This document shows, one piece after another, positions 34,521 to 56,686 of a stretch of 64,000 nucleotides of DNA. Source of the DNA: an uncultured Spirochaetota bacterium (GTDB lineage Bacteria > Spirochaetota > Brevinematia > Brevinematales > JAOACQ01); NCBI GenBank assembly GCA_963835575.1, contig CAWIGG010000003.1, forward strand, positions 268,480 through 332,479, given 5' to 3'. Made by a program: the position numbers and the translations under genes. The notes beneath the pieces are model-generated. The model ran no database searches and had not been told where the DNA came from. It saw nothing but the letters and a program-made list of their open reading frames with translations. Each line of letters starts with the position of its first letter. The stretch's first letter is position 1.

Positions 34521-34640
34521 AAATATATTTGAATCAGACTATGAAAAAACATATACTGCATCGTTTGATACTAATGATAATTTTATATGGGAAAGATTTG
34601 TAATTTTGACAAAATAATAATAGTGTATTTTTTATATTAT

Positions 34641-35924: not shown

Positions 35925-35926
35925 AT

Positions 35927-38217: not shown

Positions 38218-39892
38218 TTGCCTGTCGGTTATTTCATTTTCGGAGTCAAACCAGCCCCTTACAATAAGCGGGCAAATAAAAATTTTGTCAGCTTAGCTGA
38301 TTTTAATAATAAATTTCGAATAATCGATACTCAGACTATACAAAATCCTCTCTATTTTCTCAAATATTGGGCATATTTCATAAAATTATGCGCAAGGGAT
38401 ACCCAGCATAGCTCCAAATTCACTTTCCGTTGACCTCTGTAAACTGTCTGAACATAACCCTTCTGTGTTTTGATGTTTGAAAATACGTGTTCTTTACCTA
38501 TCCTGCGGTTGTATATCTTTTGCCCTTCTTCGCTGTAAAGTTTTGTTAAATAAGCATCAATCTTAGACCGATTATTCAATTCAAACTCACTGAAAATTAC
38601 TGTCTTTTGCTGTGTTTTCGGTTTGATGTTTTTATAACACTCACTGAAAAATGGACATCTTTCACAGCCCTTCCGTGAATACAAAAATGTATATCTTTGG
38701 TTATTTCGATCTAAATACCCATTTTCCTTACGGCCGCCCCGGCATCCCAGGATATATTCGTCATCAATCTTTTCCAGTTTAAAGTCTCTTCGCTTCTGTG
38801 ATTTATCACTGAAATCCCGCTCTTTCGTATCCACATAAAGGTCTTTTCCTTCCTCCACCATCCGGATTGTCTCTTCCATGTCCTGAAAACCCGAATCAAA
38901 AAGGTATTTGCTAGCCTTATCAACTTTTAATTCCGCTTTTTTCTGTTCCACCCTCTTTACCATTTCTTCCGTATGCTGTTTTTCCGGTGTTGTGATTGCT
39001 TCAAAATCTATAATCACATCATTATTACTGACCATCATCGCCGAATTATATCCCTGTATAAACACACTATGCGGATTTCCAGACATCAGCTTGCTTTCGG
39101 GATCAGTCAGGTTGGTGAATTCTTCGTCTGTCTTTTCCCCTCTCTCTACCTGTTTTTTGTATTCATCGATTTGGTTCAAAACACTATCGTAAATCTTTTT
39201 CCGCCTTGATACCCGCTTCTTCTCCGCTTCGTAATAAGGCTGCTCCAGCTTGCCTTCCCGGTAAGATTCTTCCAGTTCCAGGTCTTGTTTCACAATCTTT
39301 TCCGCCATCTTCTGGTAAGTGTCCATCAGCTTCCGGGTATGTTTCTTTCCCACATTCTTATTCTTACTCGCGTAGGCCTTGATCTTTGTGCCGTCACCCA
39401 CTACCATGTCCCAATCTATAGACCCCATTTCGTTGAGTATATATAAAAGCTGGCTGAACAACTCCTCGATCTTTTCCTGAAAAAGTACCTTGAACTCGCA
39501 AATTACCGAATGGTCAATTTTCAGCCGGTTTGAAACATACATAAACCCAATGTGTTTTTTCAGCAAATCTTCTATCTTTCGGCTGATACGATTTCCCGTA
39601 ATGTAACCGTAGAGTACCGCACAGATCACATCCCGAGGATTTTTAATCTCTCTGCCTCTATGGTCGTTCTTATAGTAAGCCGCGAAATCCTCCAGTTTAA
39701 TACGGTTTTTGATGAATTCTTTTAGTATAAATTCTCTGGAATTCTCATCAAACTGCTCGCCTATATTGATCGCGAGGAACTCACCCTGCTCCAGGCTGTT
39801 CTTTTCAAATCTTGCCATCTTTTTCTCCCGTTTTATTTTAACGGGAACCCTGCCGTATGTCCATGAAGCATGTTATAAAAACCGACAGGCAA
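38218..39892 (-). mobile_element. IS1182-family element (1675 bp)
   Basis: 13-bp IR TTGCCTGTCGGTT / AACCGACAGGCAA; 4-bp TSD TATC at 38214-38217 and 39893-39896. Confidence 0.9.
38352..39818 (-). CDS. IS1182-family transposase
   Basis: SRKIE, DHSVICEF, DGTKIKA, TDPES, QGYN, DSGF, CERCPF, EHVFSNIK. Confidence 0.9.
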   Translation of the reverse strand: MARFEKNSLEQGEFLAINIGEQFDENSREFILKEFIKNRIKLEDFAAYYKNDHRGREIKNPRDVICAVLYGYITGNRISRKIEDLLKKHIGFMYVSNRLKIDHSVICEFKVLFQEKIEELFSQLLYILNEMGSIDWDMVVGDGTKIKAYASKNKNVGKKHTRKLMDTYQKMAEKIVKQDLELEESYREGKLEQPYYEAEKKRVSRRKKIYDSVLNQIDEYKKQVERGEKTDEEFTNLTDPESKLMSGNPHSVFIQGYNSAMMVSNNDVIIDFEAITTPEKQHTEEMVKRVEQKKAELKVDKASKYLFDSGFQDMEETIRMVEEGKDLYVDTKERDFSDKSQKRRDFKLEKIDDEYILGCRGGRKENGYLDRNNQRYTFLYSRKGCERCPFFSECYKNIKPKTQQKTVIFSEFELNNRSKIDAYLTKLYSEEGQKIYNRRIGKEHVFSNIKTQKGYVQTVYRGQRKVNLELCWVSLAHNFMKYAQYLRK

Positions 39893-41430
39893 TATCGGCA
39901 AAAGAATGCCTGAGGTCGCTGTCAAGCCCCGCGATAATGCTTTTAATGCCGAGGTAGTAGGAATGCATGCCGGCTTCAAAAAGCTTTTTTTCCAGATATT
40001 TAGCTACCTCCCGTTTACCGGCGCCCCTTTCGCCGGTTATGAGCACAAATTTGGACTTATGTGAATTTTTTATTTCCCTCTCCGCGGTTTTGATAAAACT
40101 GAAATCCCAGACCCTTTCCCTGTCTTTAATATATTCCTCTATGAAAAGAGAGCCGTCTGTTCTGCTTTTTATTATTACTCCGGCGCCGCATATTTCATAA
40201 TTATCGATGATAACGAACCGGCCGGTGGACTCTATAGCCTGCGCCGTATCGAAGGCGAACGGTTTATCCGCTTCAAGGACGCATTCCGATACGTCATATC
40301 TGTCTATATGGTCTTTATTCTCAAGCTCCGTCAGTTCGGATGAGTCAATGATATTAATTATTTCTCTCAATTGAACAAGGATTTTGGCCGTTCCGATTTT
40401 AGCGATATATTTTTTCCCCCTGACGAGAGGAATATTTCCCATCCAGAAGAGGGTGGCCTCTATTTTTCTGCCGACCTGCGGGTAATTCTTCTCTGCTTTC
40501 CCGGCCATAATTTCTCCGGGCTTGATATATAAGTCGTCTTCCAGAGTAAATCCGCAGCTTACGCCTTCTTGAATGGTTCCAGCCGGGTTGAACTCGATCG
40601 TTTTGATCCTGGATTTTTTGTTCGAGGGGAAAAAAACAACTTCATCTCCTTCGGAAATGCCGCCGCAGGCTACCTGCCCGGCAATGATGCGCCGTGTATC
40701 CTCCCCGTCCGTAAATTTATAAACATCCTGGACGGGAAACCGGAAAGGCTTTTTTTCCTCTTTTGCCTGCTCCTTAAAACCGTCTATTTGTTCAATGACC
40801 GTCGGGCCGCTGAACCACCCGAGATTTGCGGAACGGACAGCGATATTTTCTCCATACCGGGCGCAGACCGGGATGAAACTTTCAGCCTTCAGCCCGATCT
40901 TTTCAAGGAATCCGCCGTATTCCTTTACAACGTCCTGGAAACTCTCCCTGCTGTAAGCGGTCAGGTCCATCTTATTGACCAATACGGCGATTTGCTTGAT
41001 CCCCAGGAGGGATATGAGATAGCCATGCCTTTTTGAGTTTTCCTGAATGCCTTCCTGTACATCAATCACAATCAGCGCGGCTGAGGCTTTAGCCGCACCC
41101 GTGATCATATTTTTCAGAAATTCCATATGACCCGGAGCATCGATGATGAGATAGTCCCGCTTCCCTGTTTTAAAGAAAACACGGCAGGTATCGATGGTAA
41201 TCCCCTGCGATTGTTCTTCCTTGAGCGAATCAAGCAGAAAGGCATATTCAAAATTTTTCGCGTTCTTCTCGCAATAAGCCCGGATGTTTTCGAGTTTTCC
41301 TTCCGGCAGGGAATGCGTATCCGCCAATAGTCTTCCTATTATACTGCTTTTACCATGATCGACATGCCCTGTAATGACGATATTAAACTGTTCTTTATTA
41401 TTCAAGCTGTGCTCCTAATCTCAGTCTGTA

Positions 41431-42318
41431 TTACATATAGCCGTCGCGGCGGAGAGTCTCGAGAGTGCCGCCATCCTCTTTGTCCTGCTCTCTTCCCGAA
41501 CGCTCAGCGACATTTGACAGCCGTCCGCTCTTCAATTCATCTATGACTGCCTCAATGGTTGAAGCTTCCGAATCAATCGGCTTTGTACAGGGATAGCAGC
41601 CGAGAGAACGGTAGCGTTTTCCATTTCCCTGATTCAGATACAATTTAATAAAAGGAATATTATCCCGCTTTATATATTCCCAGACATCAAGCTCAGTCCA
41701 GTCCAGGAGCGGATGGATCCGGATATGGCTTCCCGGCGGAAAATCAGTATTATAATAATGCCAGAGCTCCGGCGGCTGATCTCCGATATTCCACACGCTT
41801 GCTTCCGACCTGGGGGAGAAATATCTCTCTTTCGAACGGCTCCCCTCCTCATCGGCCCTGATGCCTACTATCACACCCTGGAAAGGGTCTTTCCGCAGGT
41901 CCGGTTCATATTTTCCCGTATTCAGGTTCATTTTGTACCGGGGCCATTCCCCGGAGAGAGTGTGCCTGAGGGCCTCGCTTTTCAAACTTTTACAGCATGC
42001 TATCCTGTCCGCATTTCCATCCGGGAATGTCAGCTTTTCCTCCAGCGCTTTTTTATTCTCGCCATAGATCATCTCAAGCCGCCATTCGCGGGCAAGCCGG
42101 TCCCGGAAGGCGATCATTTCCGGGATTTTATAATGGGTGTCGATATGAACAAGGGGGAAGGGAATATGACCGAAAAAAGCCTTCCTTGCCAGGTAAAGCA
42201 TGACCGTGCTGTCTTTGCCGATCGACCAGAGCATGCAGAGGTTTTTATTTTTAAATTCCCGGTACGCTTCCCTGAGGATATAAATACTTTCCGATTCCAG
42301 TTTTTCCATCCTGTCCAT
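41431..42318 (-). CDS. cysD: Sulfate adenylyltransferase subunit 2
   Basis: [37 protein letters not shown]. Confidence 0.95.
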
Positions 42319-42339
42319 TGTCCGCTCCTCTTCTTTTGT

Positions 42340-43065
42340 TTAACTTTTCCCGACATGCAGCCCGCATTCCTTCTTTTCAGGGCTTTCCCACCACCAGCGT
42401 CCGCTCCTTTCGTCGTCTCCCTCTCCGGTCGCCCGCGTGCAGGGCAGGCAGCCGATGCTGGCAAAGCCCTTATCAAAGAGCTTATTGTACGGGATTTGAT
42501 TCTCCTTTATATAATTCCAGACATCCCTGGACAACCAGTCGGATAATGGATTGATTTTTATGATATTGAATTGCTCATCCCACTCAAGCGGCAGAACTTC
42601 CGCGCGTGTCATAGACTGGCCCCTCCTGAGTCCGCAAATCCAGGCATCGACAGTGGACAGCGCTCTCTTAAGAGGCCGGATCTTCCGTACCTCACAGCAG
42701 AGTTTTCGCAGTTTAAGGTTTTTGTAAAAAAGATTGGGGCCGTTTTTCCGTTCGAGTTCTTCAACATCCCGGGATTCCGGGAATAAAACTTCATAGCAGA
42801 AGCCGTATTTCTCCATTGTTTCCTGCATCGTATCGTAAGTTTCCTGAAACACCCGCCCTGTATCCAGCGTCAGTATGCGCGCTTTCCTTTCTTTTAAAAG
42901 AAGCATATGCGTCAGAACCTGGTCTTCATTACTGAGGCTCGAAGCGAGAATGACATGCGGCGGCCCGAATGTATCAAGTGTCCAGTCAATCAATTCCCGG
43001 GTTTTCAAACTTCCGGTTTGTTTCTGATATTCCATTAATTTTTCTTTCAAGAAGCGCCTGCCCAA
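42340..43065 (-). CDS. cysH: APS reductase (4Fe-4S CysH-type); start uncertain
   Basis: LDTGR, CCEVRK, SIGCLPCT, RSGRWWWE, KECGLH. Confidence 0.93.
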   Translation of the reverse strand: MGRRFLKEKLMEYQKQTGSLKTRELIDWTLDTFGPPHVILASSLSNEDQVLTHMLLLKERKARILTLDTGRVFQETYDTMQETMEKYGFCYEVLFPESRDVEELERKNGPNLFYKNLKLRKLCCEVRKIRPLKRALSTVDAWICGLRRGQSMTRAEVLPLEWDEQFNIIKINPLSDWLSRDVWNYIKENQIPYNKLFDKGFASIGCLPCTRATGEGDDERSGRWWWESPEKKECGLHVGKS

Positions 43066-43177: not shown

Positions 43178-44197
43178 TTATTGCCAGACTGTTTCGAATT
43201 TATATTCGAGTTCCAGCTTGATATTGATCTCCCCGGATGGCCGGCTGTAGCCGAACAGCGGCTTTATTGCCAGATCCTTGCCTGGTTTGATATTAGCGCC
43301 TACATATTCCCCCCGGACATTGCTGACGGAATCCGGGGAAGCATAGTCATAACGGATATACGGCGTAAATGCCCCATCAAAAAGCTTATAACCCAAGGTA
43401 AATGAAGCGACATAACCTGAAACGGCCGCATTATCAAGCGTAGAAACTAATCCTATATACTGAAGCAGGAAATCAACAGGTATTACCAGTGCATCAAAAG
43501 CCGGGTCGCTAGCCTTTATTCCCACAGCCCAGGACACTTCACGCTTTAAAGTGGAGCTGTTATAATCCTGGTAGCGGAAAGTACCGCCGATAGACAGCCC
43601 TTTGAAGAGCAATATATACAAGCTCACCTGTTCAGCGTAATTATCCGCTTTGGTATTTGTTCCGCTGAATATATTTTCAGATCCCTCGCCGTTTAACACC
43701 TGGATATAATAGTTGATAAATCCCTGTTTGTTATCCCCGGAACTGAAAAGCTTACCGGACAGGGCCAGTCCAAAATCAGCCGATTTGGTCGGCGATATAT
43801 TGGAGTATGTTTCTTCAGCAGATTTTACCGGTATCGGGTAGTTCCATTCGGAGAGATACCCGAAATAGGATTTTAATAATCCTCCCGATAGCACCGCTTC
43901 ATTCAGAAGCACCCAATCGAAATAGGCAAATTTTAAAGGCGTGGCCGGTTTTGAAAAGTCGGCAGTAAAACATCCCCTGATCGTATTCCCAAACCAGTCC
44001 TTTCCCTCGCCTGTCAATGTCAGGTACAGCCTGCCGATATAAAATGCTCCGCCCTTATCTATATTGCCGTTCGCCGAATTTGTATCAGCGGTTACTTCAT
44101 TATCCAGCCAGCCTAAAGTTTCCAGGCGGGTTTCAGCCCAGGCTGATACGCTTGATAAAAACAGTAAAAGCATTACAAATTTTATATGATGCTTCAT
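43178..44197 (-). CDS. Porin-like outer-membrane beta-barrel protein
   Basis: Signal peptide; RLYLT, KFAYFDW, SADFG, NGEG; amphipathic C-terminal strand LELEYKF. Confidence 0.6.
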   Translation of the reverse strand: MKHHIKFVMLLLFLSSVSAWAETRLETLGWLDNEVTADTNSANGNIDKGGAFYIGRLYLTLTGEGKDWFGNTIRGCFTADFSKPATPLKFAYFDWVLLNEAVLSGGLLKSYFGYLSEWNYPIPVKSAEETYSNISPTKSADFGLALSGKLFSSGDNKQGFINYYIQVLNGEGSENIFSGTNTKADNYAEQVSLYILLFKGLSIGGTFRYQDYNSSTLKREVSWAVGIKASDPAFDALVIPVDFLLQYIGLVSTLDNAAVSGYVASFTLGYKLFDGAFTPYIRYDYASPDSVSNVRGEYVGANIKPGKDLAIKPLFGYSRPSGEINIKLELEYKFETVWQ

Positions 44198-44235
44198 AAA
44201 GCAACTCCTTTTAAATAAAATTTTCATTTTTATAT

Positions 44236-44478
44236 TTATATGTTGAAATCGTCCTGTGGAACATTTTTTTTCCCAAAAGATATCTTGTTCCATAATTGTT
44301 CATGAAAGTAATATAAAAATATTTTAGAAACAAGTTCCACCAATCCTATTGAGAGGGCCCATTTCAATTTGCCTGTAATAATAAAAGCCCAAAGTACCGT
44401 ATCCAGCGTGCCGGTAATTCTCCAGCTGATCGCTTTAACCAGGCTTCTGGTATGGTTTTCGATTATTTTTTGCTTCAT
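44236..44478 (-). CDS. DUF2061 family membrane protein
   Basis: RSLVKAISWRITGTLDT...YYFHEQLW. Confidence 0.85.
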   Translation of the reverse strand: MKQKIIENHTRSLVKAISWRITGTLDTVLWAFIITGKLKWALSIGLVELVSKIFLYYFHEQLWNKISFGKKNVPQDDFNI

Positions 44479-44488
44479 TAACCTGCCC

Positions 44489-46876
44489 CTATTTTTTTAT
44501 TATGACACTCCAGAAGCCTTCAATCCTTTCCTGTTTAAGTATCGTATGGCCTTCCGAGATGACCGAACCCGGAACATTATTGATGGGTTCTCCGTCAGAG
44601 AGCCAGATTTCCAGCACTTCGCCCTTATTCATTTTCGAAAGCTCCATCTTTGTTTTCACAAAATTCATCGGGCATGCGACTCCCCGTAAGTCCTTGAAAT
44701 ATTTTGCCTGGGCCCGTCCATCCGTAAGCCCTGGCCTGAGAGTTTTTTTTACTCCGGGCTGCGCCTCCATCAGGGAGGATTTTTTAAAAGATAGGGAATC
44801 GTCCATATTCCGGTAAAGCTCCATCACATCCCGCGCGAGGGATAATATACTTTCTTCCCGATCGGTTAAAAAAACGTCTCTTTTACCGGCTGCCGCCTCT
44901 TCAATTAAGCGGCTGTAATCCGCTGCCTTATCCGGACTGAAAAACCCGGACTCAATAAAATATTTTTTAAAGCCGAGAAAAACCGTCCTGTCATCGCCGG
45001 CCTCGATGCCTTGAGTTATCAGGAGCATTCTGGCAGAATGAAAAAGGATGCTGTAAAATGCTTTTTCCTTTTCAGAAGGCGAATCCCCTGCGGATGTTAA
45101 AAATATTTTACCTTTTTCGATTTCATTGAAGTCCCTTTCAATAAAATCGAGTAAGCCGGCATAGCACTCTCCCGCACCCCGTCCGGCGAGCGAGAACACC
45201 TCTTCCGAGTCCCAGTCGAAATAATAATTTTTGTTCTCGGCAAATGTGGGAGGAGAGGAAAATTTACTGTCCAGCAAATGGGAAATATACCGCCGGCCAT
45301 GTTTTTCAATATATTCACTGAAATCCGAATATTCCCCGTACCGGCCGATAAAATTTTCCATTATCTTCATGATCAATTCCGGAACGTCCCTCGCGCTTAT
45401 TTCGCCTATCTTTTCACTGAACCGTGTTTTTCCATCACTGCCGGCCGCTCCCGAGGTGATGACATAAGCGGGGTAAAGCCTTTCGCCGCTGCGGGCCGCG
45501 AAGCCGTAAAGTCCGATGTCTCCCAGAAGATGCGCCCCGCATGAATTCGGACAGCCTGATATATGGAGCGTCACCTTTTTTGCTTTGTCCATGTCCAGCC
45601 TGCTTTTTTTGAGTTTTCTCATTATCTCTCCGGCCGCACCCCGCGATAGGCAAATCCCCAGCCGGCATGTTGAAGCCCCCGCACAGGAAATAATATTCCC
45701 GTAAAAAGGCGGGAAAGAAACCTCATCGAAAAGTTCCCTGAGAAAACCGTAAAATGTTGATAGATATTCCTCGGGAATATTCCTCAGGTGAATATTCTGA
45801 TCGAGGGTAAACCGGATCACATTATCGCCGAAATCCTTTAAGAAAGCCGATAACTTCAGGGTTTTTTCATAAGTCAAAACACCCAAAATAACCGGAACGG
45901 TAATAGAAAACAATCCTTCCTGTTTCTGAATCCGGACATACCGCTTTTTCCAGAGTTCATAGGATTGGATATCCTCCAATCCTTTTTTCAGGATTCCAGG
46001 ATGGCAGCCGGTATTCTTTATTTCAGCTATATCCAGCGGTATAAAACCCTGCTTTTTAATTTTGTCGAATTCTTGAGTAAAAAGCCTGTTGAACTCTCCT
46101 TCGCCCATGCGGTCATACAAAAAACGCAGCCGCGCAGTGTTGCGGTTCTTCCTATTGCCATGTTTATTGAAGATGCTTTTAACGGCTACGGCAGCCGCAT
46201 ATACCTCGTTTTCAGGAATAAAATCCAGCAGGAGCCTGCCCAATGAAGATTTGGCCCCCATCCCGCCGGCAGCATAAACACGGAATCCTTTTAAGCCATT
46301 CTCTATCCGCGCAATAAATCCAAGGTCATTTACGGAGGCGGAGGCGGTATCCTGACCGGAATTTGAAAAAGCGATTTTAAATTTCCGGGGCAATGCCCAG
46401 GAATCGCCTTCCGATATAAAACGGCTCGTGAGAGCGACGGCATAGGGCGAGACATCGAATATCTCTTCCCTGCTGATTCCCGAGTCGGCAGAAGCGGTAA
46501 TATTACGGACAGTATTGCCCCCTCCGCCCCTGGTTGTCAGGCCGATTTCTTTTAATTCTTTGATAACGCCTGCAATATGTTCCAGCTTTATATTATGGAT
46601 CTGTATTTCCTGGCGTGTGGTAATATGAAGCAGTCCGCTGCCGTATTCCGATGAAAGTTTTGCTATCTTTTCAAGTTGAGAAGGCGAAATGATGCCGGCG
46701 GCACAGCGCACTCTGATCATGAAGATATTATCTTCCCTTTGCTCATAAACCCCGAACGGCACCCGGTGTGTTTTGAGCAGAATCTTATCAATTTCATCGC
46801 GCTGATATTTTTCTATCAAAATCTTAAATTCCTGAAGCTCTTTCCCAAGATTATCCGGCAGCCGATAACTAATCAT
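44489..46876 (-). CDS. Siroheme sulfite reductase with C-terminal TusA domain
   Basis: GVYEQR, HITTRQ, LPRKFK, CAGASTC...GCPNSC; terminal DLRGVACPMNFVKTK. Confidence 0.9.
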   Translation of the reverse strand: MISYRLPDNLGKELQEFKILIEKYQRDEIDKILLKTHRVPFGVYEQREDNIFMIRVRCAAGIISPSQLEKIAKLSSEYGSGLLHITTRQEIQIHNIKLEHIAGVIKELKEIGLTTRGGGGNTVRNITASADSGISREEIFDVSPYAVALTSRFISEGDSWALPRKFKIAFSNSGQDTASASVNDLGFIARIENGLKGFRVYAAGGMGAKSSLGRLLLDFIPENEVYAAAVAVKSIFNKHGNRKNRNTARLRFLYDRMGEGEFNRLFTQEFDKIKKQGFIPLDIAEIKNTGCHPGILKKGLEDIQSYELWKKRYVRIQKQEGLFSITVPVILGVLTYEKTLKLSAFLKDFGDNVIRFTLDQNIHLRNIPEEYLSTFYGFLRELFDEVSFPPFYGNIISCAGASTCRLGICLSRGAAGEIMRKLKKSRLDMDKAKKVTLHISGCPNSCGAHLLGDIGLYGFAARSGERLYPAYVITSGAAGSDGKTRFSEKIGEISARDVPELIMKIMENFIGRYGEYSDFSEYIEKHGRRYISHLLDSKFSSPPTFAENKNYYFDWDSEEVFSLAGRGAGECYAGLLDFIERDFNEIEKGKIFLTSAGDSPSEKEKAFYSILFHSARMLLITQGIEAGDDRTVFLGFKKYFIESGFFSPDKAADYSRLIEEAAAGKRDVFLTDREESILSLARDVMELYRNMDDSLSFKKSSLMEAQPGVKKTLRPGLTDGRAQAKYFKDLRGVACPMNFVKTKMELSKMNKGEVLEIWLSDGEPINNVPGSVISEGHTILKQERIEGFWSVIIKK

Positions 46877-47270
46877 TAAGCACCTCCAGTTTCTCCTTGA
46901 AAACTTCCCCACCGCGTATTTTGTAGGAATTCACGGCAGGCCGGCCGCCGGCCAGGGAAATAATAACATGGCTTACATCCGGATCATAAGCTATCCGGAT
47001 ATCCTCCTGCGAAGGCCATGCGGGCGAAGCCGGGTGGCTGTGATAAACAGCGATGAGTTTTTCGCCTTTTTCCCTCGCTTTTTTCAGAACGGCGAACTGC
47101 TCTTTCGGGTCTAAACTGAAATGTTCCGGGCTGTTATCAATATTGGTCATCGGATAAAAGTTTGTTGCAAGATCACACATTCCGCTCAGGTAGCCGCAAG
47201 CCTCTATAGGGGCTTCCCTCTGCGCATGGCCGATGATCGCATCTAGTATTTTTTTCTTTATCCACATCAT
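46869..47270 (-). CDS. JAMM/MPN (Mov34, M67) metallopeptidase, HcyD/Mec-like
   Basis: EACG, YHSHP...PSQED. Confidence 0.92.
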   Translation of the reverse strand: MMWIKKKILDAIIGHAQREAPIEACGYLSGMCDLATNFYPMTNIDNSPEHFSLDPKEQFAVLKKAREKGEKLIAVYHSHPASPAWPSQEDIRIAYDPDVSHVIISLAGGRPAVNSYKIRGGEVFKEKLEVLND

Positions 47271-47491
47271 TTCTCTATTACCACCCTGTATCTGTTTTCC
47301 CGGACAGGATCGATCCCGATTATTTTAAAGCCCTGCTCTGCGCATGCCTTGGGTACGTTATCGAGAGGTTCGCCTTCGGTCAGGAGAACTTCCAATAGAT
47401 CTCCCTTCTCCATTTTTGACAACTGCAGTTTTGTTTTGACAAAAGTCATCGGGCAGTGTTCCTTAACGATATCCAGAGTATAAACCTTCAT
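47267..47491 (-). CDS. TusA/SirA-family sulfur carrier
   Basis: LDIVKEHCPMTFVKTK. Confidence 0.9.
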   Translation of the reverse strand: MKVYTLDIVKEHCPMTFVKTKLQLSKMEKGDLLEVLLTEGEPLDNVPKACAEQGFKIIGIDPVRENRYRVVIEK

Positions 47492-47535: not shown

Positions 47536-48018
47536 CTATATAAACAGGGTTTGCCCGCCGGATGAAATATCCAGAAACTTGGCCACCCCCAATACTTTCC
47601 TTACTTCCGGTATAAAATCCTCTTTTACGAGCCCCAGGATGACCATCGACATCTCGCAGGCGTAAAAGTTCACACCCAGGGTTTTGGACGCCTCTATCAA
47701 CTCGGTTAATGTCGCGACATTTCTCTTTTTCATCATCGATATCATCAAAACAGGGCTCAATCCTCCGAAGTTCAGGCGGCTGAGCGGCAGATTCCCGAAT
47801 CCTCCCATAAGAAAACCAAAAAACCTTGCCAGGAAGCCCTTTCCAAGAAAACTCCGGCCCTTTTTTCTTTTTATCGCGTTCAGCCCCCAGAAGGTAAAAA
47901 ATAAATTAACCTCATAATTTACCGCCGCCGCTCCGCTTGCCAGCGTAAACACGGCTATAAGTTTATCAAAATCTCCGCTAAAGCTGATGATAGAGAGCTT
48001 TTTTTTCGGATCTGTCAT
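47536..48018 (-). CDS. DsrE2-like (DsrE/DsrF family) protein
   Basis: LSIISFSGDFDK, FFTFWGL, YACEMSM. Confidence 0.88.
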   Translation of the reverse strand: MTDPKKKLSIISFSGDFDKLIAVFTLASGAAAVNYEVNLFFTFWGLNAIKRKKGRSFLGKGFLARFFGFLMGGFGNLPLSRLNFGGLSPVLMISMMKKRNVATLTELIEASKTLGVNFYACEMSMVILGLVKEDFIPEVRKVLGVAKFLDISSGGQTLFI

Positions 48019-48030
48019 ATTAATCTCCTT

Positions 48031-48846
48031 TTACTTCTTTAAATCGCAGGCAGCCTGTTCTTCGTCATGGAGTTGTGCGATGGCCGGTTTTAATCCGCAG
48101 ACCGGACATTCCGGATTTTTCTTTAATTTTACTTTCCTGAAATCCATAGTTTTGGCATTCAAAATCAGAAGCTGATTATAAAGGATTTCCCCGATTCCCA
48201 GGATATACTTTAGGGCTTCCGTCGCCTGTATGGTGCCCAGAATTCCGGCTACGGCCCCTAATACTCCCGCCTGTGAACATGTCGGAACGGCATTCAAAGG
48301 AGGCGGGGATGTAAAAACACAGCGGTAGCATGCCGTCTCACGCGGCTTTACAGTCATTGTCTGGCCTTCAAACCGGAGGATGCCTCCGTGCGAAAAAGGC
48401 TTGTTTTCAAAGACACAGGCGTCATTGATCAGGAATTTTGAAGCGAAATTATCGGTTCCGTCAATAATAAAATCATATTCCCGGATAATACCCCTGATAT
48501 TCGAGGCTTCCAAATGCTCCGCATAAGTATTAATTCCAATACCGGGGTTCAATGCATGCATTTTGTTTTTTGCGGACTCGACTTTCAATTTACCGACATC
48601 ACCGGTAAAATGTATAATCTGCCTTTGAAGATTGGACAGGTCAACCCTGTCGTAATCGGCTATGCCGATGGTACCGACGCCGGCAGCGGAAAGATAGAGT
48701 GCGGCAGGCGCCCCCAGCCCGCCGGCGCCTATGATCAGGACTTTACTGTTCAGGATCTTTTCCTGGCCTTCAATACCGACGTCTTTCAATAATATATGCC
48801 TAGAATACCTTTCCAGCTGTTCATCATTAAAATCCATTTCTTTCAC
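48031..48846 (-). CDS. ThiF/MoeB-family adenylyltransferase (E1-like, HcyF-like)
   Basis: RYSRH, GAGGLG, SNLQRQ, DGTDNF, CYRC, CPVC. Confidence 0.95.
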   Translation of the reverse strand: MKEMDFNDEQLERYSRHILLKDVGIEGQEKILNSKVLIIGAGGLGAPAALYLSAAGVGTIGIADYDRVDLSNLQRQIIHFTGDVGKLKVESAKNKMHALNPGIGINTYAEHLEASNIRGIIREYDFIIDGTDNFASKFLINDACVFENKPFSHGGILRFEGQTMTVKPRETACYRCVFTSPPPLNAVPTCSQAGVLGAVAGILGTIQATEALKYILGIGEILYNQLLILNAKTMDFRKVKLKKNPECPVCGLKPAIAQLHDEEQAACDLKK

Positions 48847-48879: not shown

Positions 48880-50325
48880 TTATAGAGTTTTGAAAGCATC
48901 CTCTATATCCTCTATCAAATCTTCCCTATCCTCTATACCGGCCGATAACCGGAGCATATTTTCCGGAACTCCCAATTCTTTTTTTGTTTCAGGTGGAAAC
49001 TCGCAATAAATCGTTGATGACGGGTGGATTATCAATGATTTATTATCATTGATATTGGTCGCCCGGCGAATTATTTTAAGGTTATTCATAAACCGGAAGC
49101 ATTTTTCTTTCGATTCCAGTTCAAACGTAAGAATACCGCCGAACTGGCCGTTAAAAAACTTCTTCGCATAAGCATGATAGGGGCTTCTTTCAAGTCCCGG
49201 ATAATTCACCCGCTTCACTTCCGGATGATTATGTAAGTATAATGCCAGGTCCATCGCGTTTTGAGAACTTCTGTCCATCCTGAGAGCGATGGTTTCAAGG
49301 CCGAGAGTGTGTAGATACGCATTCTGGGCGGACATGCATGCTCCAAGATTGCGGTAAACTTCCCTGCGGAGTTTCATTAAAAAAGTAGATTGACCAAATT
49401 TTTTATAATCATTCTGAAGCTTTTCAATTTTACTCCAGTTGAAGTTCCCATAGTCAATAATAATTCCCCCCACCGACGTGGCTCCTCCCGACATATACTT
49501 TGTTGAGGATATCACGTCAATATTCACACCGTAATCCTTTGAATGGAACAGGTAAGGCGTGCTGGCCGTGTTATCCGCTATGAGAAGAATCCCATGTTTT
49601 TCCGCGGTCCTGCCCAAAGCTTCAATATCAAAAACCGCAAGCTGGGGATTGGTTATGGTTTCGATAAATATTGCCCTTGTTGTTTCATCTATTGATCTTT
49701 CAACCTCCTCCGGTTTATGGAAATCGGCATATTTAACTTTCAGGCCCCAGGGCTTCAGTGTATTTTCCATAAGTGAATAAGTATTACCGAAGATGTATTT
49801 AGAGGTTAAAATCGTATCATTAGTTTGAGCTAAAGCAAGGATCGTATTGGCAATCGCCGCCATACCGGAAGAAAGCGCGATAGATCCGAAGCCGCCGGCT
49901 AAAAAATTGATCTTCTGTTCAAATTCAGCAACTGTCGGGTTGGAAATCCTCGAATAGGAATGGGCTGATTTCTTACCCAAAAAAGCGTTTTCAATATCTT
50001 CGGCGTTTTCAAACTCAAAAGCGGCGCAATCATAAATCGGTGTTCTTAAGGCTTTGTGTGCATCATTATTTTTATTAGGCCCATGGATAGCCTTTGTCAT
50101 AAATCCTTTTATTTTAAAATCACCTCCACCCATGAAATAGAGAATATCGATTATATCGTTCTCTTTCAAATAAGTGTCGATAAACCTTTCTTTTTCGATA
50201 TAAGCACCATTCAACTGAACCGAAACCATATCCGGCGATTCTACTTTCCGGATCCGGATAACTTCAGCTATACTGAGATTACTGCTTTCAAAGCTTTGAC
50301 GTTCTCCATTAATAATAATATTCAT
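48880..50325 (-). CDS. ThiS-like sulfur carrier fused to O-acetylhomoserine sulfhydrylase (MetY-like PLP enzyme)
   Basis: aa 1-68 ThiS fold ending LYFMGGG; then YSRISNPT, SSGMAA, DNT, SSTKY, LRLSAGIE. Confidence 0.85.
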   Translation of the reverse strand: MNIIINGERQSFESSNLSIAEVIRIRKVESPDMVSVQLNGAYIEKERFIDTYLKENDIIDILYFMGGGDFKIKGFMTKAIHGPNKNNDAHKALRTPIYDCAAFEFENAEDIENAFLGKKSAHSYSRISNPTVAEFEQKINFLAGGFGSIALSSGMAAIANTILALAQTNDTILTSKYIFGNTYSLMENTLKPWGLKVKYADFHKPEEVERSIDETTRAIFIETITNPQLAVFDIEALGRTAEKHGILLIADNTASTPYLFHSKDYGVNIDVISSTKYMSGGATSVGGIIIDYGNFNWSKIEKLQNDYKKFGQSTFLMKLRREVYRNLGACMSAQNAYLHTLGLETIALRMDRSSQNAMDLALYLHNHPEVKRVNYPGLERSPYHAYAKKFFNGQFGGILTFELESKEKCFRFMNNLKIIRRATNINDNKSLIIHPSSTIYCEFPPETKKELGVPENMLRLSAGIEDREDLIEDIEDAFKTL

Positions 50326-50340
50326 AACAACTCCTTTATA

Positions 50341-50368
50341 TCATACTATTCCTATCTATTTAGTATGA
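50341..50368. promoter_or_regulatory. Palindromic operator, candidate Rrf2 (CymR/IscR-like) site
   Basis: TCATACTA-N12-TAGTATGA just upstream of the sulfur operon RBS. Confidence 0.55.
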
Positions 50369-50498
50369 AATATTATAGAAAATCATTTTATTTTTGTCAA
50401 TAATAGACATACAATTATTTATTTGCTGAATATCAGGGAAGTTGACTATTTAATTTTATGATGATATTATAGGATTAATATATTAACCAGGAATATCC

Positions 50499-52439
50499 AT
50501 GCTCAGAATAATATCAAGAAGATCATCTCTTGCCCTGAAACAGGTTGAAGAAGTATTTTCTCTATTAGGCAAAAAAGAATACCGTCTCATCACACTGGAA
50601 ACATACGGTGACAGGCATAAAGAAATATCGCTTCTTGAAAACACCATGCAGGACATTTTTACACACGAACTGGATGAAGCATTACTTAAAGATAAAGCGG
50701 ATGCGGCTATCCATTCCGCAAAGGATTTACCATATCCGCTGCCGGAAGGATTGGAAATTGTCGCGCTGACAGAGCCTCTTGACAACACGGATTCTCTTGT
50801 CAGTTTTAATCATAAAAAACTGAGGGAATTACCGGATGGAACGGTTCTCGGGGTGAGTTCCCCGATAAGAAAAAAATATATAAAGCAGGTCCGTCCTGAC
50901 ATTAAAACCGTCAGCATTCGCGGGACAATTGAAGAGAGGCTTCATTTAATAGAAGAAGGATTGATCGGCGGTACTATCGTCGCCACATGTGCCCTTATCC
51001 GGCTTGGGTTGAAAGAAAGGATCGCCGAGATATTACCTTATAAAACCCATCCCCTGCAGGGTTCACTTGCCGTAACTGCCCGCCGGAATAGAGCGGACAT
51101 GAAAGTGCTCTTCAGTAAAATTGACCGGCGCAGGAAGCTTGGTAAAGTTTACCTGGTCGGCGCAGGACCGGGCGATCCTGAACTGCTGACGGTGAAGGCC
51201 GATAAGATATTAAAGCAGTCCGATGTTATCGTGTATGATGACCTGACCGGCGGAGAAATAATTTCGCAGTATAAAGGGGAAAAAATATACGCCGGCAAAC
51301 GGAAGGGGAGCCATTCAATGGAACAGGACGAAATCAATGAGCTTCTCTATCAATTTGCTTTGAGCGGTAAGGACACGGTCCGGCTTAAAGGCGGAGATCC
51401 GTTGATTTTCGGCAGAGGCGGCGAAGAACTAAGTTACCTAGGAGCAAGGCTTATCAATACGGAGGTGGTCCCGGGCATCACGGCTGGCCTTTCAGCCGCA
51501 GCCAGCGCAAAAATACCCCTCACCATGCGGGGCATTTCCGAAAGCGCCGGTTTTGTGACCGCTCAGTCCGCTTCAAAGAGAGATATTCCGGTCCCTTCTG
51601 ATGACACGCTGGTTTACTATATGGGCGCGTCCCGCCTGAAGGAACTTTCCGGGGCTCTCATCCGGGCGGGGATTGATCCTTCGATGCCCGCTGCGCTCAT
51701 TCATAATACCGGTTCTTCCGGAGAAATAATTAAATTGAAAAAGGTTGATGAGCTCGGGCAAAAAGACCTGCATTCACCGCTCATCGTCATCATAGGCGCG
51801 GCCGCGGGGGAATACAGGCACCTCCCGCGTGTTCTCTACATGGGCCTGGAATTAAATCATACCTATTCCTTTATCCCCGGAAAACTGATACATTATCCGC
51901 TGATCCGGGTCCGGGAAAGGAGCAGCCGGAGAATGCCCGATTTTTCTTCTTTTAATGCGATTATCTTTACATCAAAAACAGCGGTCAGGCTTTTCTTTCA
52001 AAAATACCGGCCGGAAAATTTAAAAATATACGCTATCGGCGATTATACCAGAATGGAAATTGAAAAACTCGGATTTTCAGTTGAGGGGGTGTCCCCTAGA
52101 CCCGATTCGGATGTGTTCGCGGAAATGATAAAAAAGTTGAATTACAACCAGATACTTTATCCCTGTTCAAGCCTTTCCAACAATAAGATCCTGTCTCTGC
52201 CGGAGGTACAAAAACTTGTGCTTTACGATGTCATACCCGTTAAGAGGAAGAAACTCGACTTAAATGAATTTCAGGGGGTTTATTTCTCATCGTCTTCCAC
52301 AGTCGAGGCTTTTTACGGGATTTATAAAAATTTCCCGGATCATCTTGTTTATTATGCTCAAGGGTCTTATACTTTCAATAGACTTAAAAATTATGGTTTA
52401 GCGGAGGAATTGATAATCAATGTTCAAGAGATACCGTGA
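50499..52439 (+). CDS. HemC-CobA-HemD triple fusion
   Basis: SRRSSLALKQ, AIHSAKD, IRGTIEERL (HemC); LVGAGPGDPELLT, RLKGGDP (CobA/SUMT); IIFTSKTAV, AIG, FSSSSTV (HemD). Confidence 0.88.
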   Translation: MLRIISRRSSLALKQVEEVFSLLGKKEYRLITLETYGDRHKEISLLENTMQDIFTHELDEALLKDKADAAIHSAKDLPYPLPEGLEIVALTEPLDNTDSLVSFNHKKLRELPDGTVLGVSSPIRKKYIKQVRPDIKTVSIRGTIEERLHLIEEGLIGGTIVATCALIRLGLKERIAEILPYKTHPLQGSLAVTARRNRADMKVLFSKIDRRRKLGKVYLVGAGPGDPELLTVKADKILKQSDVIVYDDLTGGEIISQYKGEKIYAGKRKGSHSMEQDEINELLYQFALSGKDTVRLKGGDPLIFGRGGEELSYLGARLINTEVVPGITAGLSAAASAKIPLTMRGISESAGFVTAQSASKRDIPVPSDDTLVYYMGASRLKELSGALIRAGIDPSMPAALIHNTGSSGEIIKLKKVDELGQKDLHSPLIVIIGAAAGEYRHLPRVLYMGLELNHTYSFIPGKLIHYPLIRVRERSSRRMPDFSSFNAIIFTSKTAVRLFFQKYRPENLKIYAIGDYTRMEIEKLGFSVEGVSPRPDSDVFAEMIKKLNYNQILYPCSSLSNNKILSLPEVQKLVLYDVIPVKRKKLDLNEFQGVYFSSSSTVEAFYGIYKNFPDHLVYYAQGSYTFNRLKNYGLAEELIINVQEIP

Positions 52440-53358
52440 CAGAAGGATAGACGCTGCGACCCGCCTGAAGCATCAGGAAACTTTTTTAAAAAAAGAAGAT
52501 TTCATCTGGCCCATATTTTTATTGGAAGAAAACGATAGGGTTGAAAAGATAGACTCTATGCCCTCTCTTTATCGATATTCAGCCGATAAACTGATGCCTG
52601 TTTTGGAGGAGCATATCAACCGCGGCTTAAAAGCCGTTCTTTTATTCGGAGTGCCCGATAAAAAAGGGATTGAAATGGCCTATAGTCCGGAAGGCATTGT
52701 ACAGAAGGCCGTACCCCTGATAAAAAAAGCATTTCCCCGGCTCGAGGTTATAACAGATGTGTGCCTGTGTTCCTTTACGCAGGACGGGCACTGCCATATC
52801 GGCGATAACGACAAAACATGCGCCCTTCTCGCGAAAGTCGCTCTAAGTCATGCCAGGGCGGGCGCCGACATTGTCGCTCCTTCCGATATGATGGACGGCA
52901 GGGTCTTTTATATCCGGAAAGCGCTTGATGAAGCCGGTTTCACCAAAGTCCGGATCATGTCTTACGCGGCCAAGTATGCCTCTTCTTTTTACGGGCCTTT
53001 CCGCACCGCGGCCGATTGCGCCCCAAAAAAAGGCGATCGAAAGTCTTACCAGATGGACCCCCCGAACGCTCAGGAAGCCATGGAAGAAATCGCTTCCGAC
53101 ATCGAAGAAGGGGCCTCCAGCATCATTATAAAACCGGCTCTTTCCTATCTCGATATTATTTACCGCGCAAAACAGAAGTTCCGGGTTCCGATAGTCGCTT
53201 ACAACGTTTCGGGGGAATATTCGATGCTGAAACTGTTGATGGAGAAGGGATTGGCCGGGAAAGACATCGTTATGGAAACGCTCATCTCAATAAAACGCGC
53301 CGGAGCGGATAGAATAATATCTTATTTTACCCCGGAAATGCTTCAATTTTTAGAATAA
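52420..53358 (+). CDS. hemB: Porphobilinogen synthase
   Basis: DVCLCSFT.DGHC, APSDMMDGR, FYGPFR, IKPA, YNVSGEY. Confidence 0.96.
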   Translation: MFKRYRDRRIDAATRLKHQETFLKKEDFIWPIFLLEENDRVEKIDSMPSLYRYSADKLMPVLEEHINRGLKAVLLFGVPDKKGIEMAYSPEGIVQKAVPLIKKAFPRLEVITDVCLCSFTQDGHCHIGDNDKTCALLAKVALSHARAGADIVAPSDMMDGRVFYIRKALDEAGFTKVRIMSYAAKYASSFYGPFRTAADCAPKKGDRKSYQMDPPNAQEAMEEIASDIEEGASSIIIKPALSYLDIIYRAKQKFRVPIVAYNVSGEYSMLKLLMEKGLAGKDIVMETLISIKRAGADRIISYFTPEMLQFLE

Positions 53359-53366
53359 GAGGCTTT

Positions 53367-54617
53367 ATGACACTATACGAAGAAGCGTCAAAAGTGATGC
53401 CCGGCGGAGTGAATTCACCCGTCCGGGCCTTTCGTTCGGTCGGCATGGATCCTTTGTTTGTAAAAAAAAGTGAAGGAAGATATTTGTACGGCGAAGACGG
53501 CCGGAAATACCTGGATTTCTGCCTTTCCTGGGGCGTGCATATTTTAGGGCATAATCATCCGGCTGTTATCAAGGCATTAAAACAAGCCCTGAAAAACGGC
53601 ACGTCCTTCGGATTTTCCCATTCTTATGAAAACCGGTTTGCGCTTTTGATCAAAGAGTGCATGCCTTCCATTGAGAAAATCCGTTTTGTGAATTCAGGCA
53701 CGGAAGCTGTTTTATCCGCCATCCGTTTGGCCAGGGGATTTACCGGACGGGAAAAAATAATTAAATTTGACGGATGCTACCATGGCCATAGCGATGCCCT
53801 CCTGGTTAAGGCAGGTTCAGGTGTGGGTGAGATGCCTGCCGCCTCTTCATCGGGTATTCCGGAAGAAGTCGTTAAAAACACGATTTCCCTGCCCTATAAT
53901 AACAAAGAATTATTGGAAAAAATAATAAGAAAAAACGGGAAAACAACAGCATGCGTGATTTTGGAGCCTATCCCTGCCAATATGGGTGTGGTAATCCCTG
54001 AGGAAGGGTTCCTTGAGTTTTTAAGAAAAATAACCCGGGAATTTGATATCCTCCTCATCTTCGACGAAGTAATTTCCGGCTTCCGAGCGGGACCCGGAGG
54101 GGCCCAGGGACTTTATGGAATCCGGCCTGACCTGACGGCGCTGGGAAAGATCATCGGGGGAGGCCTGCCGGTCGGCGCGTTCGGAGGCCGTTCTGAAATC
54201 ATGGACAGGCTGGCACCCGGCGGCGATGTTTACCAGGCGGGAACTCTTTCCGGCAATCCATTGGCGCTGCGCGCCGGATATGCTGCCGTGAAGTACCTGA
54301 AAAATCATCCCTCAACTTACAAGATTCTTAACGATCTCACTTCTGAATTCAGCAGGGAATTCAGGAAAATCTCAAAATATACCATTAATTCCATCGCTTC
54401 ATTTTTTACTATTTTTTATACCGAAAGGCCTGTCAATAATTTTGAGGATGCCGGGAAGCAGGACAAAAATGCTTTTCAACTTTTCTATAAAAATTTGTTT
54501 AAAAGATGTATTTTATTCCCCCCTTCAATGTTTGAAGCGTCTTTTTTAAGCATACGCCATCGATACAGGGATTTAGAAAAGATTCTCAAAATATTCAAGG
54601 AATCTTGCGTTCAATAG
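53367..54617 (+). CDS. hemL: Glutamate-1-semialdehyde 2,1-aminomutase
   Basis: PGGVNSPVRAF, NSGTEA, GCYHGH, GKIIGGGLP, QAGTLSGNP. Confidence 0.97.
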   Translation: MTLYEEASKVMPGGVNSPVRAFRSVGMDPLFVKKSEGRYLYGEDGRKYLDFCLSWGVHILGHNHPAVIKALKQALKNGTSFGFSHSYENRFALLIKECMPSIEKIRFVNSGTEAVLSAIRLARGFTGREKIIKFDGCYHGHSDALLVKAGSGVGEMPAASSSGIPEEVVKNTISLPYNNKELLEKIIRKNGKTTACVILEPIPANMGVVIPEEGFLEFLRKITREFDILLIFDEVISGFRAGPGGAQGLYGIRPDLTALGKIIGGGLPVGAFGGRSEIMDRLAPGGDVYQAGTLSGNPLALRAGYAAVKYLKNHPSTYKILNDLTSEFSREFRKISKYTINSIASFFTIFYTERPVNNFEDAGKQDKNAFQLFYKNLFKRCILFPPSMFEASFLSIRHRYRDLEKILKIFKESCVQ

Positions 54618-54749
54618 ACCGTATGTGCGGGCTTCCGCAGAGTCCGCCTGACCCATTCCTTATTTTATTTAAAGTTGCAATTGTATTATAATATAAAATA
54701 TTATCAGATTTTATCTTCTAAAAATTATTTAACGGGTATAAAACATATT

Positions 54750-55184
54750 ATGAAATTAACAACACGGACCCGCTATGGAGTCAGGTTTTTATTCCAATTG
54801 GCACTTAATTATGATAAAGGCACCATGCAGCTGAGTGAAATTGCTAAAAAGGAAAATATTTCGGAAAAGTATCTGGAGCAGATTGCCAGCACTCTGAAAT
54901 CGGCAGGATTTATCAGGGCACAGAGAGGAGCCCAGGGAGGGTATCAATTGGCGCGTGATCCCTCTTCCATCAATCTGGCCGACGTGGTCAGCGGACTGGA
55001 AGGTTCGCTGTCGGTCATGGACTGCCTGGAAAAAGACGGTTGTGAAAAAAGCGGTAATTGCGCCGCGCAAAATGTCTGGCGAAGGCTGGACGATTCAATA
55101 AAAAAATCATTGAAGAGCATATATCTGTCCGATATGGTTGATGATTACCACAGGGAATGCTTCCAGCCGAATTTTGATATCTGA
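54750..55184 (+). CDS. Rrf2-family regulator with three Cys (IscR/CymR-like)
   Basis: MKLTTRTRYG, ISEKYLEQI, RGAQGGY, C..C..C. Confidence 0.92.
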   Translation: MKLTTRTRYGVRFLFQLALNYDKGTMQLSEIAKKENISEKYLEQIASTLKSAGFIRAQRGAQGGYQLARDPSSINLADVVSGLEGSLSVMDCLEKDGCEKSGNCAAQNVWRRLDDSIKKSLKSIYLSDMVDDYHRECFQPNFDI

Positions 55185-55345: not shown

Positions 55346-55380
55346 AATCACATTTTTATCAAAAATTATTATAAACATAA

Positions 55381-56664: not shown

Positions 56665-56686
56665 AATATTAAAAGGCTGTTAAGAT

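Follow-up and report, generated by a model that had tools for sequence, protein, structure and literature searches.

A ThiS-like sulfur carrier fused to MetY in a Spirochaetota genome: a likely precursor processed by the JAMM protease of its operon

How can a ubiquitin-like sulfur carrier function when its reading frame runs on, without a stop, into the enzyme that it would supply? The question is raised by one gene (48880..50325, minus strand) in a 64,000-nucleotide stretch of contig CAWIGG010000003.1 from an uncultured Spirochaetota bacterium, the whole of which is called the window below. The gene encodes 481 residues plus a stop, in the order ThiS-like carrier, spacer and MetY-like pyridoxal 5'-phosphate (PLP) enzyme, and it heads an operon that also encodes an E1-like adenylyltransferase and a JAMM metalloprotease. 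A carrier fused through its C-terminus cannot be adenylated and must therefore be cut free. We consider it likely, with good comparative support, that the gene specifies a precursor for a homocysteine pathway of the Wolinella type, made up of an HcyS-like carrier, a 3-residue spacer and MetY, from which the JAMM protease releases the carrier.

The fusion gene and its operon

The fusion was delimited from the list of open reading frames (ORFs), Pfam matches and homologs of the same architecture. Residues 1-68 (50122..50325) form an HcyS/ThiS-like β-grasp sulfur-carrier domain that ends in YFMGGG (Pfam ThiS at residues 6-68, with E 4.8e-7 and 30.7 bits, above the cutoff of 22.5). Residues 72-481 (48883..50112) form a MetY domain of the O-acetylhomoserine sulfhydrylase type (Pfam Cys_Met_Meta_PP at residues 77-479, E 4.1e-111), and NCBIfam likewise assigns the second part of the protein to the O-acetylhomoserine sulfhydrylases. 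The PLP lysine, K276 (49498-49500), is invariant in an alignment with 31 other sequences (A1) and matches Lys210 of T. maritima MetY. There is no stop codon in the ORF between the carrier end DILYFMGGG (residues 60-68) and DFKIKGF-MTKAIHG, and the ORF and domain assignments agree with an initial annotation of the DNA, which had described a 68-residue ThiS-like domain running into a MetY-like enzyme. The carrier, a separate small protein in the Wolinella-type pathway, is here followed after its GGG by a 413-residue chain of spacer plus MetY. The spacer is D69-F70-K71 (50113..50121), and a JAMM cut is predicted between G68 and D69 from the unconserved linker and the structure models.

The junction resembles the boundary between two genes in split relatives, in which GGAGG lies in the corresponding Gly codons 5-10 nt ahead of the metY start. 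In the window, GGAGGT within the codons of G67 and G68 (50122..50127) marks the position of the ancestral metY ribosome-binding site, and 9 nt separate it from the ATA codon of I72 (50110..50112). In an alignment to the M-(N/K)-G-F-T-T-K of the split relatives, I72 coincides exactly with their start Met, which fits a recent fusion. The initial annotation had singled out both the GGAGGT motif and the ATA in place of an expected ATG, and the split relatives bear out both observations. A Shine-Dalgarno sequence, AAGGAG (50331..50336), lies 5 nt ahead of the ATG of the fusion ORF, and upstream of the gene a sigma-70-type promoter, TTGACA-17 nt-TATAAT (50372..50400), is the only 12/12 consensus match between 39500 and 50600. 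All of these elements are on the minus strand. An Rfam scan of the window returned no RNA family at gathering score, and no S-box or SAM riboswitch upstream of the gene.

The same strand continues with the genes for an E1-like adenylyltransferase of the ThiF/MoeB/HcyF kind (48031..48846, 271 aa, Pfam ThiF E 7e-83, no rhodanese domain), which NCBIfam matches to MoeB and to SAMP-activating E1; a DsrE2-family sulfur-transfer protein (47536..48018, Pfam DrsE_2 E 1e-41); a TusA/SirA-like sulfurtransferase (47267..47491, Pfam TusA E 5e-19); an HcyD-like JAMM/MPN+ metalloprotease (46869..47270, 133 aa, Pfam Prok-JAB E 1.6e-24); and a siroheme sulfite reductase with a C-terminal TusA domain (44489..46912, Pfam NIR_SIR, NIR_SIR_ferr, and TusA at 741-807). 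Pfam thus recovers every operon partner that had been named beforehand. The JAMM motif, E23...H77-S-H79-x7-S87-xx-D90, is intact, and 30 homologs all retain E23, H77, H79, S87 and D90. Against the NCBIfam desampylase model the protease scored 75.3 bits (E 4e-21), under the curated cutoff of 130 bits.

Compared with solved structures, the window MetY domain matched 3ri6 best, at 433 bits, 111 bits ahead of the next solved relative; sulfide-type MetYs scored 322 and 293 bits. We take 3ri6 to be the carrier-dependent MetY of Wolinella. Together with the part list, this result supports, at the level of sequence comparison, the proposed identity of the cassette as a Wolinella-type protein-thiocarboxylate route to homocysteine. 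The W. succinogenes pathway of HcyS, HcyF, HcyD, Sir and MetY was reportedly worked out by Krishnamoorthy and Begley in 2011; its carrier is said to bear a residue after Gly-Gly that the JAMM enzyme trims away, and the same enzyme is said to hydrolyse the carrier-homocysteine bond in every cycle. The two systems share a Gly-Gly-ended ThiS-like carrier, an E1 without rhodanese, a JAMM protease, a sulfite reductase and MetY, whereas the window differs in its fused carrier and in the addition of DsrE2, a free TusA and the TusA domain of the sulfite reductase. Arg270 of T. maritima MetY was also considered as a marker of sulfide-type enzymes and was rejected as offering no usable discriminator; the equivalent residue is R325 in the window, invariant in A1, and Gln in 3ri6. 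In the accessible part of PMC8191291, Wolinella MetY is described as taking a carrier thiocarboxylate.

Fused and split carriers in other genomes

Carrier loci were sought with the motif [DE][FI]LYFMGG together with PxxVSVQLN in a collection containing one genome per species, and at least 585 loci with YFMGGG were found in many phyla. When the best 80 of these were searched with the window's own proteins, ThiF was detected in 75, JAMM in 70, MetY in 62, TusA in 61, sulfite reductase in 48 and DsrE2 in 16; many of those without a cassette gene lie on short contigs. In these loci the MetY start usually falls 220-260 nt past that of the carrier. An operon of this composition (ThiS/MoaD, JAB, E1, SirA, sulfite reductase and O-acetylhomoserine sulfhydrylase) appears in row 4e of Table 1 of Iyer, Burroughs and Aravind (2006; PMC1779556), and the accessible part of that paper lists ThiG, MoaE, ThiF and sulfite reductase as fusion partners of carriers.

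The initial annotation had suggested a search for proteins combining ThiS with Cys_Met_Meta_PP, and such proteins proved to recur: 48 of the best 120 whole-protein database matches, the window's included, carry both domains in a single chain of 475-493 aa. All 48 keep the GGG, as YF(M/I)GGG. The distance from GGG to a conserved T(K/R)xxH anchor is 1-11 unconserved residues in 47 of the 48; in P0075, where the script detected no anchor over a span of 45 residues, the alignment gives a linker of about 20. When residues 1-80 served as query against proteins of 264-842 aa, the window's own fusion was the only one recovered among 19 candidates, the word index being insensitive to a short divergent domain. 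In the phylum of locus L048 (labelled Omnitrophica), 14 orthologs were found in a 301-genome sample: three are fused, nine are separate, and in two the carrier and MetY share one frame with a single stop between them. Among 80 metagenome loci, three were fused, 41 were split and 36 were without a carrier by the pattern used.

In seven other fused loci read as DNA, no in-frame ATG, GTG or TTG lies between GGG and the anchor, and MetY would therefore be made only as a fusion there. A programmed -1 frameshift at the window junction (GGA GGT GAT giving TGA, with the carrier ending at GGG) was considered and rejected because other fused loci have no out-of-frame stop at this point (GGA AGC, GGG CAG and similar). 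ThiF and JAMM genes lie directly downstream in all five fused loci whose context was examined (the window, L013, L098, L099 and L100), the co-occurrence that the initial annotation had proposed to look for, and in L013 and L098-L100 a sulfite reductase gene is directly downstream as well. Public annotations name the fused proteins either "sulfur carrier protein ThiS" or "O-acetylhomoserine (thiol)-lyase", and tools for pathway reconstruction can therefore miss the carrier or the enzyme. No description of a ThiS-MetY fusion was found in the literature searched, including the accessible parts of PMC1779556 and of the GapMind 2026 preprint, with most subscription journals beyond reach. Rather than introducing a new mechanism, the fusion repackages a known bacterial pathway, and it does so recurrently.

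Split carriers are informative about what a fusion would change. Of the best 80 loci, 78 have a readable YF[ML]GGG end, and the GGG is terminal in only three of them; 74 have 1-15 further residues with no conservation, and in one (L082) it is followed by 157 residues, a whole DsrE2. Six split orthologs from the same order as the window genome have the tails K, TCERIYN, ADERIYD, RF, AS and AS. In these six the carrier stop abuts or overlaps the metY start, with the metY ribosome-binding site inside the Gly codons, and 41 further split metagenome loci show the same pattern. Such tails need to be removed because adenylation of the carrier requires a free Gly carboxylate, and JAMM trimming is therefore already part of the split systems. 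The initial annotation had set the fusion against a separate carrier whose Gly-Gly is exposed by JAMM; trimming by JAMM stands, and the contrast shrinks, since split carriers are already tailed. Chemically, fusion to MetY is just a longer tail and adds little new logic. The DsrE2 case, another type of carrier fusion within this cassette, comes from a Bacteroidetes metagenome-assembled genome (L082 10001-10675) and is a 225-aa ORF in which a carrier of the same family is joined after GGG to DsrE2, with the tail QQKKLSLISFSGDFDKL...

The distribution of the two states over the MetY tree points to repeated change. In a FastTree analysis of 124 MetY domains (48 fused, 76 not; a filter on ORF length and motif removed those of L009, L010 and L013), the fused state has to change 12 times, at least eight of the changes being forced by well-supported branches. 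With an IQ-TREE subset of 51 rows, an approximately unbiased (AU) test rejected a single fused clade (log-likelihood difference 851, p 3e-6), the subset having been picked after the first tree had been seen and the group being defined by the tested trait itself. The window MetY falls in a clade of 13 rows (support 98). Of its 12 companions there, 11 are unfused; the remaining one, P0020, is fused and is sister to a split gene pair of genome G018. Because six of the seven same-order orthologs are two genes, the fusion appears derived in this lineage, and on these comparisons it is probably an independent, lineage-specific and recent event. The suspicion of recency voiced in the initial annotation is in this respect supported. 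Reconstruction of the mutation that made the fusion was given up; its path cannot be inferred because the nearest relative, L104, has no carrier.

With the window query, orthologs of its MetY clade were not found in the four same-genus and seven same-family genomes searched, the best matches there being paralogs of 36-40% identity. Two of the same-genus genomes (G001:C3:18520-22271 and G003:C20:11400-16215) have another arrangement without the window's MetY clade, in the order MetY (37% identical), carrier (52% identical, matched only for G001) and JAMM (54-55% identical).

Processing of the fused chain

Structure models were used to ask where the protease would meet its substrate. The AlphaFold model of the fusion (mean predicted local distance difference test score, pLDDT, 79.9) contains a β-grasp domain (pLDDT 68-88) and a confident MetY core, while residues 63-101 have pLDDT below 50 and are presumably flexible. 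JAMM was modeled in complex with the first 100 residues of the fusion, a zinc ion riding along and our own alignments serving as input. The complex scored 0.71, whereas the best of three controls had 0.01; that mark is attained by 116 of 157 solved complexes but by just 2 of 215 mismatched pairs. Across three runs at least 62% of contacts agreed and partner pLDDT was at least 91. Carrier residues 60 and 62-69 contact JAMM residues that include E23, H77, S87 and D90. The model thus supports binding of the carrier by JAMM with the GGG-D tail in the active site.

The proposed reaction sequence begins with recognition of the β-grasp domain by JAMM, which would hydrolyse the Gly68-Asp69 bond to give a GGG-terminated carrier and free MetY. 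In the steps that would follow, as reported for the Wolinella pathway, the E1 would adenylate the new carrier C-terminus, and sulfide from the sulfite reductase-TusA protein would convert the adenylate to a thiocarboxylate, with DsrE2 and TusA perhaps relaying sulfur. MetY would then add the thiocarboxylate to O-acetylhomoserine, and the same JAMM protease would hydrolyse the carrier-homocysteine adduct and so recycle the carrier. The protease is a separate protein that would act in trans, and the term self-processing polyprotein used in the initial annotation is in that sense inaccurate. Its further proposals, a 1:1 stoichiometry of carrier to enzyme and gating of the pathway by the protease, are ones that we also infer.

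Loss of a stop codon would, on this scheme, only stretch a disposable tail to a whole enzyme. Because split carriers already have tails that JAMM removes, fusion would be tolerated and would arise and revert repeatedly. We lean, by a modest degree, towards a more general formulation: JAMM cuts after GGG irrespective of the sequence that comes next, the carrier gene thereby escapes selection at its 3' end, and the fused state is a bacterial polyprotein, strictly 1:1, in which carrier function and possibly full MetY activity depend on the protease. Indifference to what follows is expected of JAMM, since each catalytic cycle requires it to cleave the carrier-homocysteine bond. Release of the 3' end from selection would explain the random 0-15-residue tails on split carriers, the drift of stop codons into the metY start region, and the repeated fusions and fissions with MetY (at least eight state changes) and even the fusion with DsrE2 in L082.

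Related logic is found in other systems. Eukaryotic ubiquitin-ribosomal protein and polyubiquitin precursors are N-terminal β-grasp fusions that a fold-recognising protease cuts after Gly-Gly; they differ in that the proteases are mostly cysteine deubiquitinases and that ubiquitin modifies proteins, whereas the window's domain would carry sulfur. The likeness amounts to analogy and distant homology and does not imply membership. MoaD-MoaE fusions are closer: they too join the Gly-Gly end of a carrier to the N-terminus of an enzyme using its thiocarboxylate. The MoaD-MoaE proteins are active only once cut after Gly-Gly, in Deinococcus by a JAMM protease. According to the accessible parts of these reports, DRJAMM was shown experimentally to cut the fused MoaD-MoaE protein DR2607 of D. 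radiodurans (PMC8832034), and MoaX of M. tuberculosis must be cut after Gly82 to work (PMC4326299). With these precedents, the fusion is not unprecedented. Unlike the window protein, the MoaD-MoaE fusions serve molybdenum cofactor and not homocysteine, MoaE is not a PLP enzyme, and the cut is experimental there and inferred here. In the mycobacterial CysO-CysM-Mec system and in MetO-MetM-Mec-MoeZ of Streptomyces, described in the accessible part of the GapMind 2026 preprint, a PLP enzyme that forms an amino acid likewise receives sulfide from a carrier thiocarboxylate, and JAMM (Mec) serves in maturation and product release; their PLP enzymes are instead CysM or the threonine-synthase-like MetM, and their carriers are separate proteins. 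If JAMM does free the window's carrier, homocysteine synthesis would be the second pathway, after molybdopterin synthase, in which bacteria cut an N-terminal ubiquitin-like fusion with a deubiquitinase-type enzyme, by the same logic as in eukaryotic genes for ubiquitin fusions. With their many naturally occurring pairs of fused and split forms, these systems offer a ready test of how a protease blind to what follows its site permits gene fusion and fission.

Several observations weigh against release of the carrier from a genuine fusion. Co-occurrence with JAMM does not discriminate, as split systems have the protease too, and the complex model may owe its pass to a resemblance to JAMM-ubiquitin-like complexes already solved. 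Among MetY relatives the closest are unfused, and the nearest (L104, 64% identity) is a lone metY behind an Rrf2 gene, without carrier, E1 or JAMM within 3 kb. The junction codons, GAT TTT AAA ATA AAA, are homopolymer-rich: one T more would give GGGDF-stop, and one A less GGGDFK-stop. The 90% cluster of the fusion protein has one member on one contig, so the junction rests on a single assembly, and in the two metagenome runs matched (each with 0.05 of the sampled words) public reads leave 50095-50135 uncovered, their contigs spanning only 49913-50063 and 50283-50400. No RNA run containing the locus was among those listed in the search, and the literature searched yielded no data on cleavage, thiocarboxylate or expression for any ThiS-MetY fusion. 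Finally, an unusual ATG at M76 (50098..50100) raises the possibility that MetY is produced separately as well, or even mainly so.

This last point leads to an alternative that we regard as unlikely, in which the fusion is real, MetY comes mainly from internal initiation at M76 or, from the GGAGGT site, at I72, and the full-length chain is a minor or decaying by-product, so that a 1:1 polyprotein logic would not be obligatory. M76 is a candidate secondary start for free MetY. It stands four codons beyond I72 and is the sole in-frame ATG, GTG or TTG from GGG to the TK anchor; its position is mostly T or I and never M in the other 31 sequences of A1, making it unique among the 32 aligned homologs as it is among eight fused loci. 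The youth of the fusion in this lineage, the GGAGGT 9 nt upstream of ATA and a weak promoter-like site (9/12 consensus) inside the carrier domain at 50169-50141 point the same way. ATA is, however, a very poor start codon, the AAAGGA ahead of M76 is spaced from it by merely 3 nt, and the seven other fused loci have no internal start. Moreover, the carrier lacks a stop of its own, so every carrier molecule is made fused and still needs cutting, and internal initiation is compatible with release of the carrier by JAMM.

We give still less credence to an assembly or sequencing artefact, in which a single-base homopolymer error hides the stop of what are really two genes. The single-base changes described above place a TAA right after GGGDF or GGGDFK, six of seven same-order orthologs are split, and the single-contig cluster and read-free junction would accommodate such an error. 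Against it, there is no hint in the assembly that indels are frequent (its ORFs of 100 aa or more, 3524 in number with a median of 301 aa, cover 85% of the genome), and the same architecture recurs in many independent assemblies. A split metY at this locus would also have no normal start, with ATA at the ancestral ATG and M76 preceded by just AAAGGA 3 nt upstream.

It is highly improbable that the chain is never cleaved and that the ThiS-like domain is a permanent docking or regulatory module of a MetY supplied by free sulfide or another carrier. Such a role would be like that proposed for the ubiquitin-like domain of some ThiF proteins in the accessible part of Iyer et al. (PMC1779556), and it might be allowed by a second ThiS of the genome, a standalone protein with GGG at its end, which is encoded next to a MetY paralog and a short ThiF (contig C4, 518473-518688). 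Against it, GGG in 48 of 48 fusions with an unconstrained linker is the pattern of a cleavage and activation site and not of a docking domain, a dedicated E1 and JAMM are kept in all five fused loci with context examined, and the second ThiS is just 37% identical and lies in another operon with its own E1.

That second carrier locus of the same genome (G000 contig C4, 517931-522182, minus strand) looks unrelated to the first and comprises an Rrf2 regulator, a 233-aa ORF, a 307-aa CysK-like ORF named by eye, the MetY paralog (40% identical), ThiS and the short ThiF. Its ThiS, of 71 aa, ends exactly in GGG and has no tail. No JAMM-like ORF was evident among the listed minus-strand ORFs of this locus, on which no family search was run.

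Surroundings of the operon

The fusion of sulfite reductase to TusA seems to be conserved in the cassette, as a TusA match ends the sulfite reductase match in most related loci. Further along the minus strand the operon runs on into genes for sulfate activation and reduction at 39873..43065: CysH-like (42340-43065), CysD-like (41431-42318) and CysN-like (39873-41405), calls that are based on Pfam (PAPS_reduct twice, GTP_EFTU with a partial APS_kinase). The CysN-like protein ends in only the first ~55 positions of an APS-kinase domain, and directly after its gene lies a second transposase gene (DDE_Tnp_1_6, 38355-39818, minus strand); an insertion sequence (IS) may have truncated a CysNC fusion here. 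Between DUF2061 and CysH the operon encodes a 371-aa protein (43178-44293, minus strand) with a signal-peptide-like N-terminus and no Pfam match, which may be an outer-membrane channel for an oxyanion.

Divergent from the operon, Pfam identifies siroheme and tetrapyrrole genes (HemC-SUMT-HemD fusion, HemB, HemL) and an Rrf2 regulator at 50499..55184 (plus strand). The first product, of 646 aa (50499-52439, plus strand), combines porphobilinogen deaminase, tetrapyrrole (uroporphyrinogen-III) methylase and uroporphyrinogen-III synthase; its gene diverges from the sulfite reductase operon, with HemB, HemL, HemA and a SirC-like gene near, and the protein probably provides a dedicated siroheme supply.

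The block from about 34.6 to 56.7 kb sits between two direct IS copies (34638-35925 and 55378-56665), each of 1288 bp with a DDE_Tnp_1 transposase and 99.5% identical to each other, in the manner of a composite transposon. The genome holds 22 near-full-length matches to this IS, so the flanking could be chance. The flanked sulfate-assimilation, siroheme and carrier-MetY block has a G+C fraction of ~0.43-0.47, compared with 0.34-0.41 in its surroundings.

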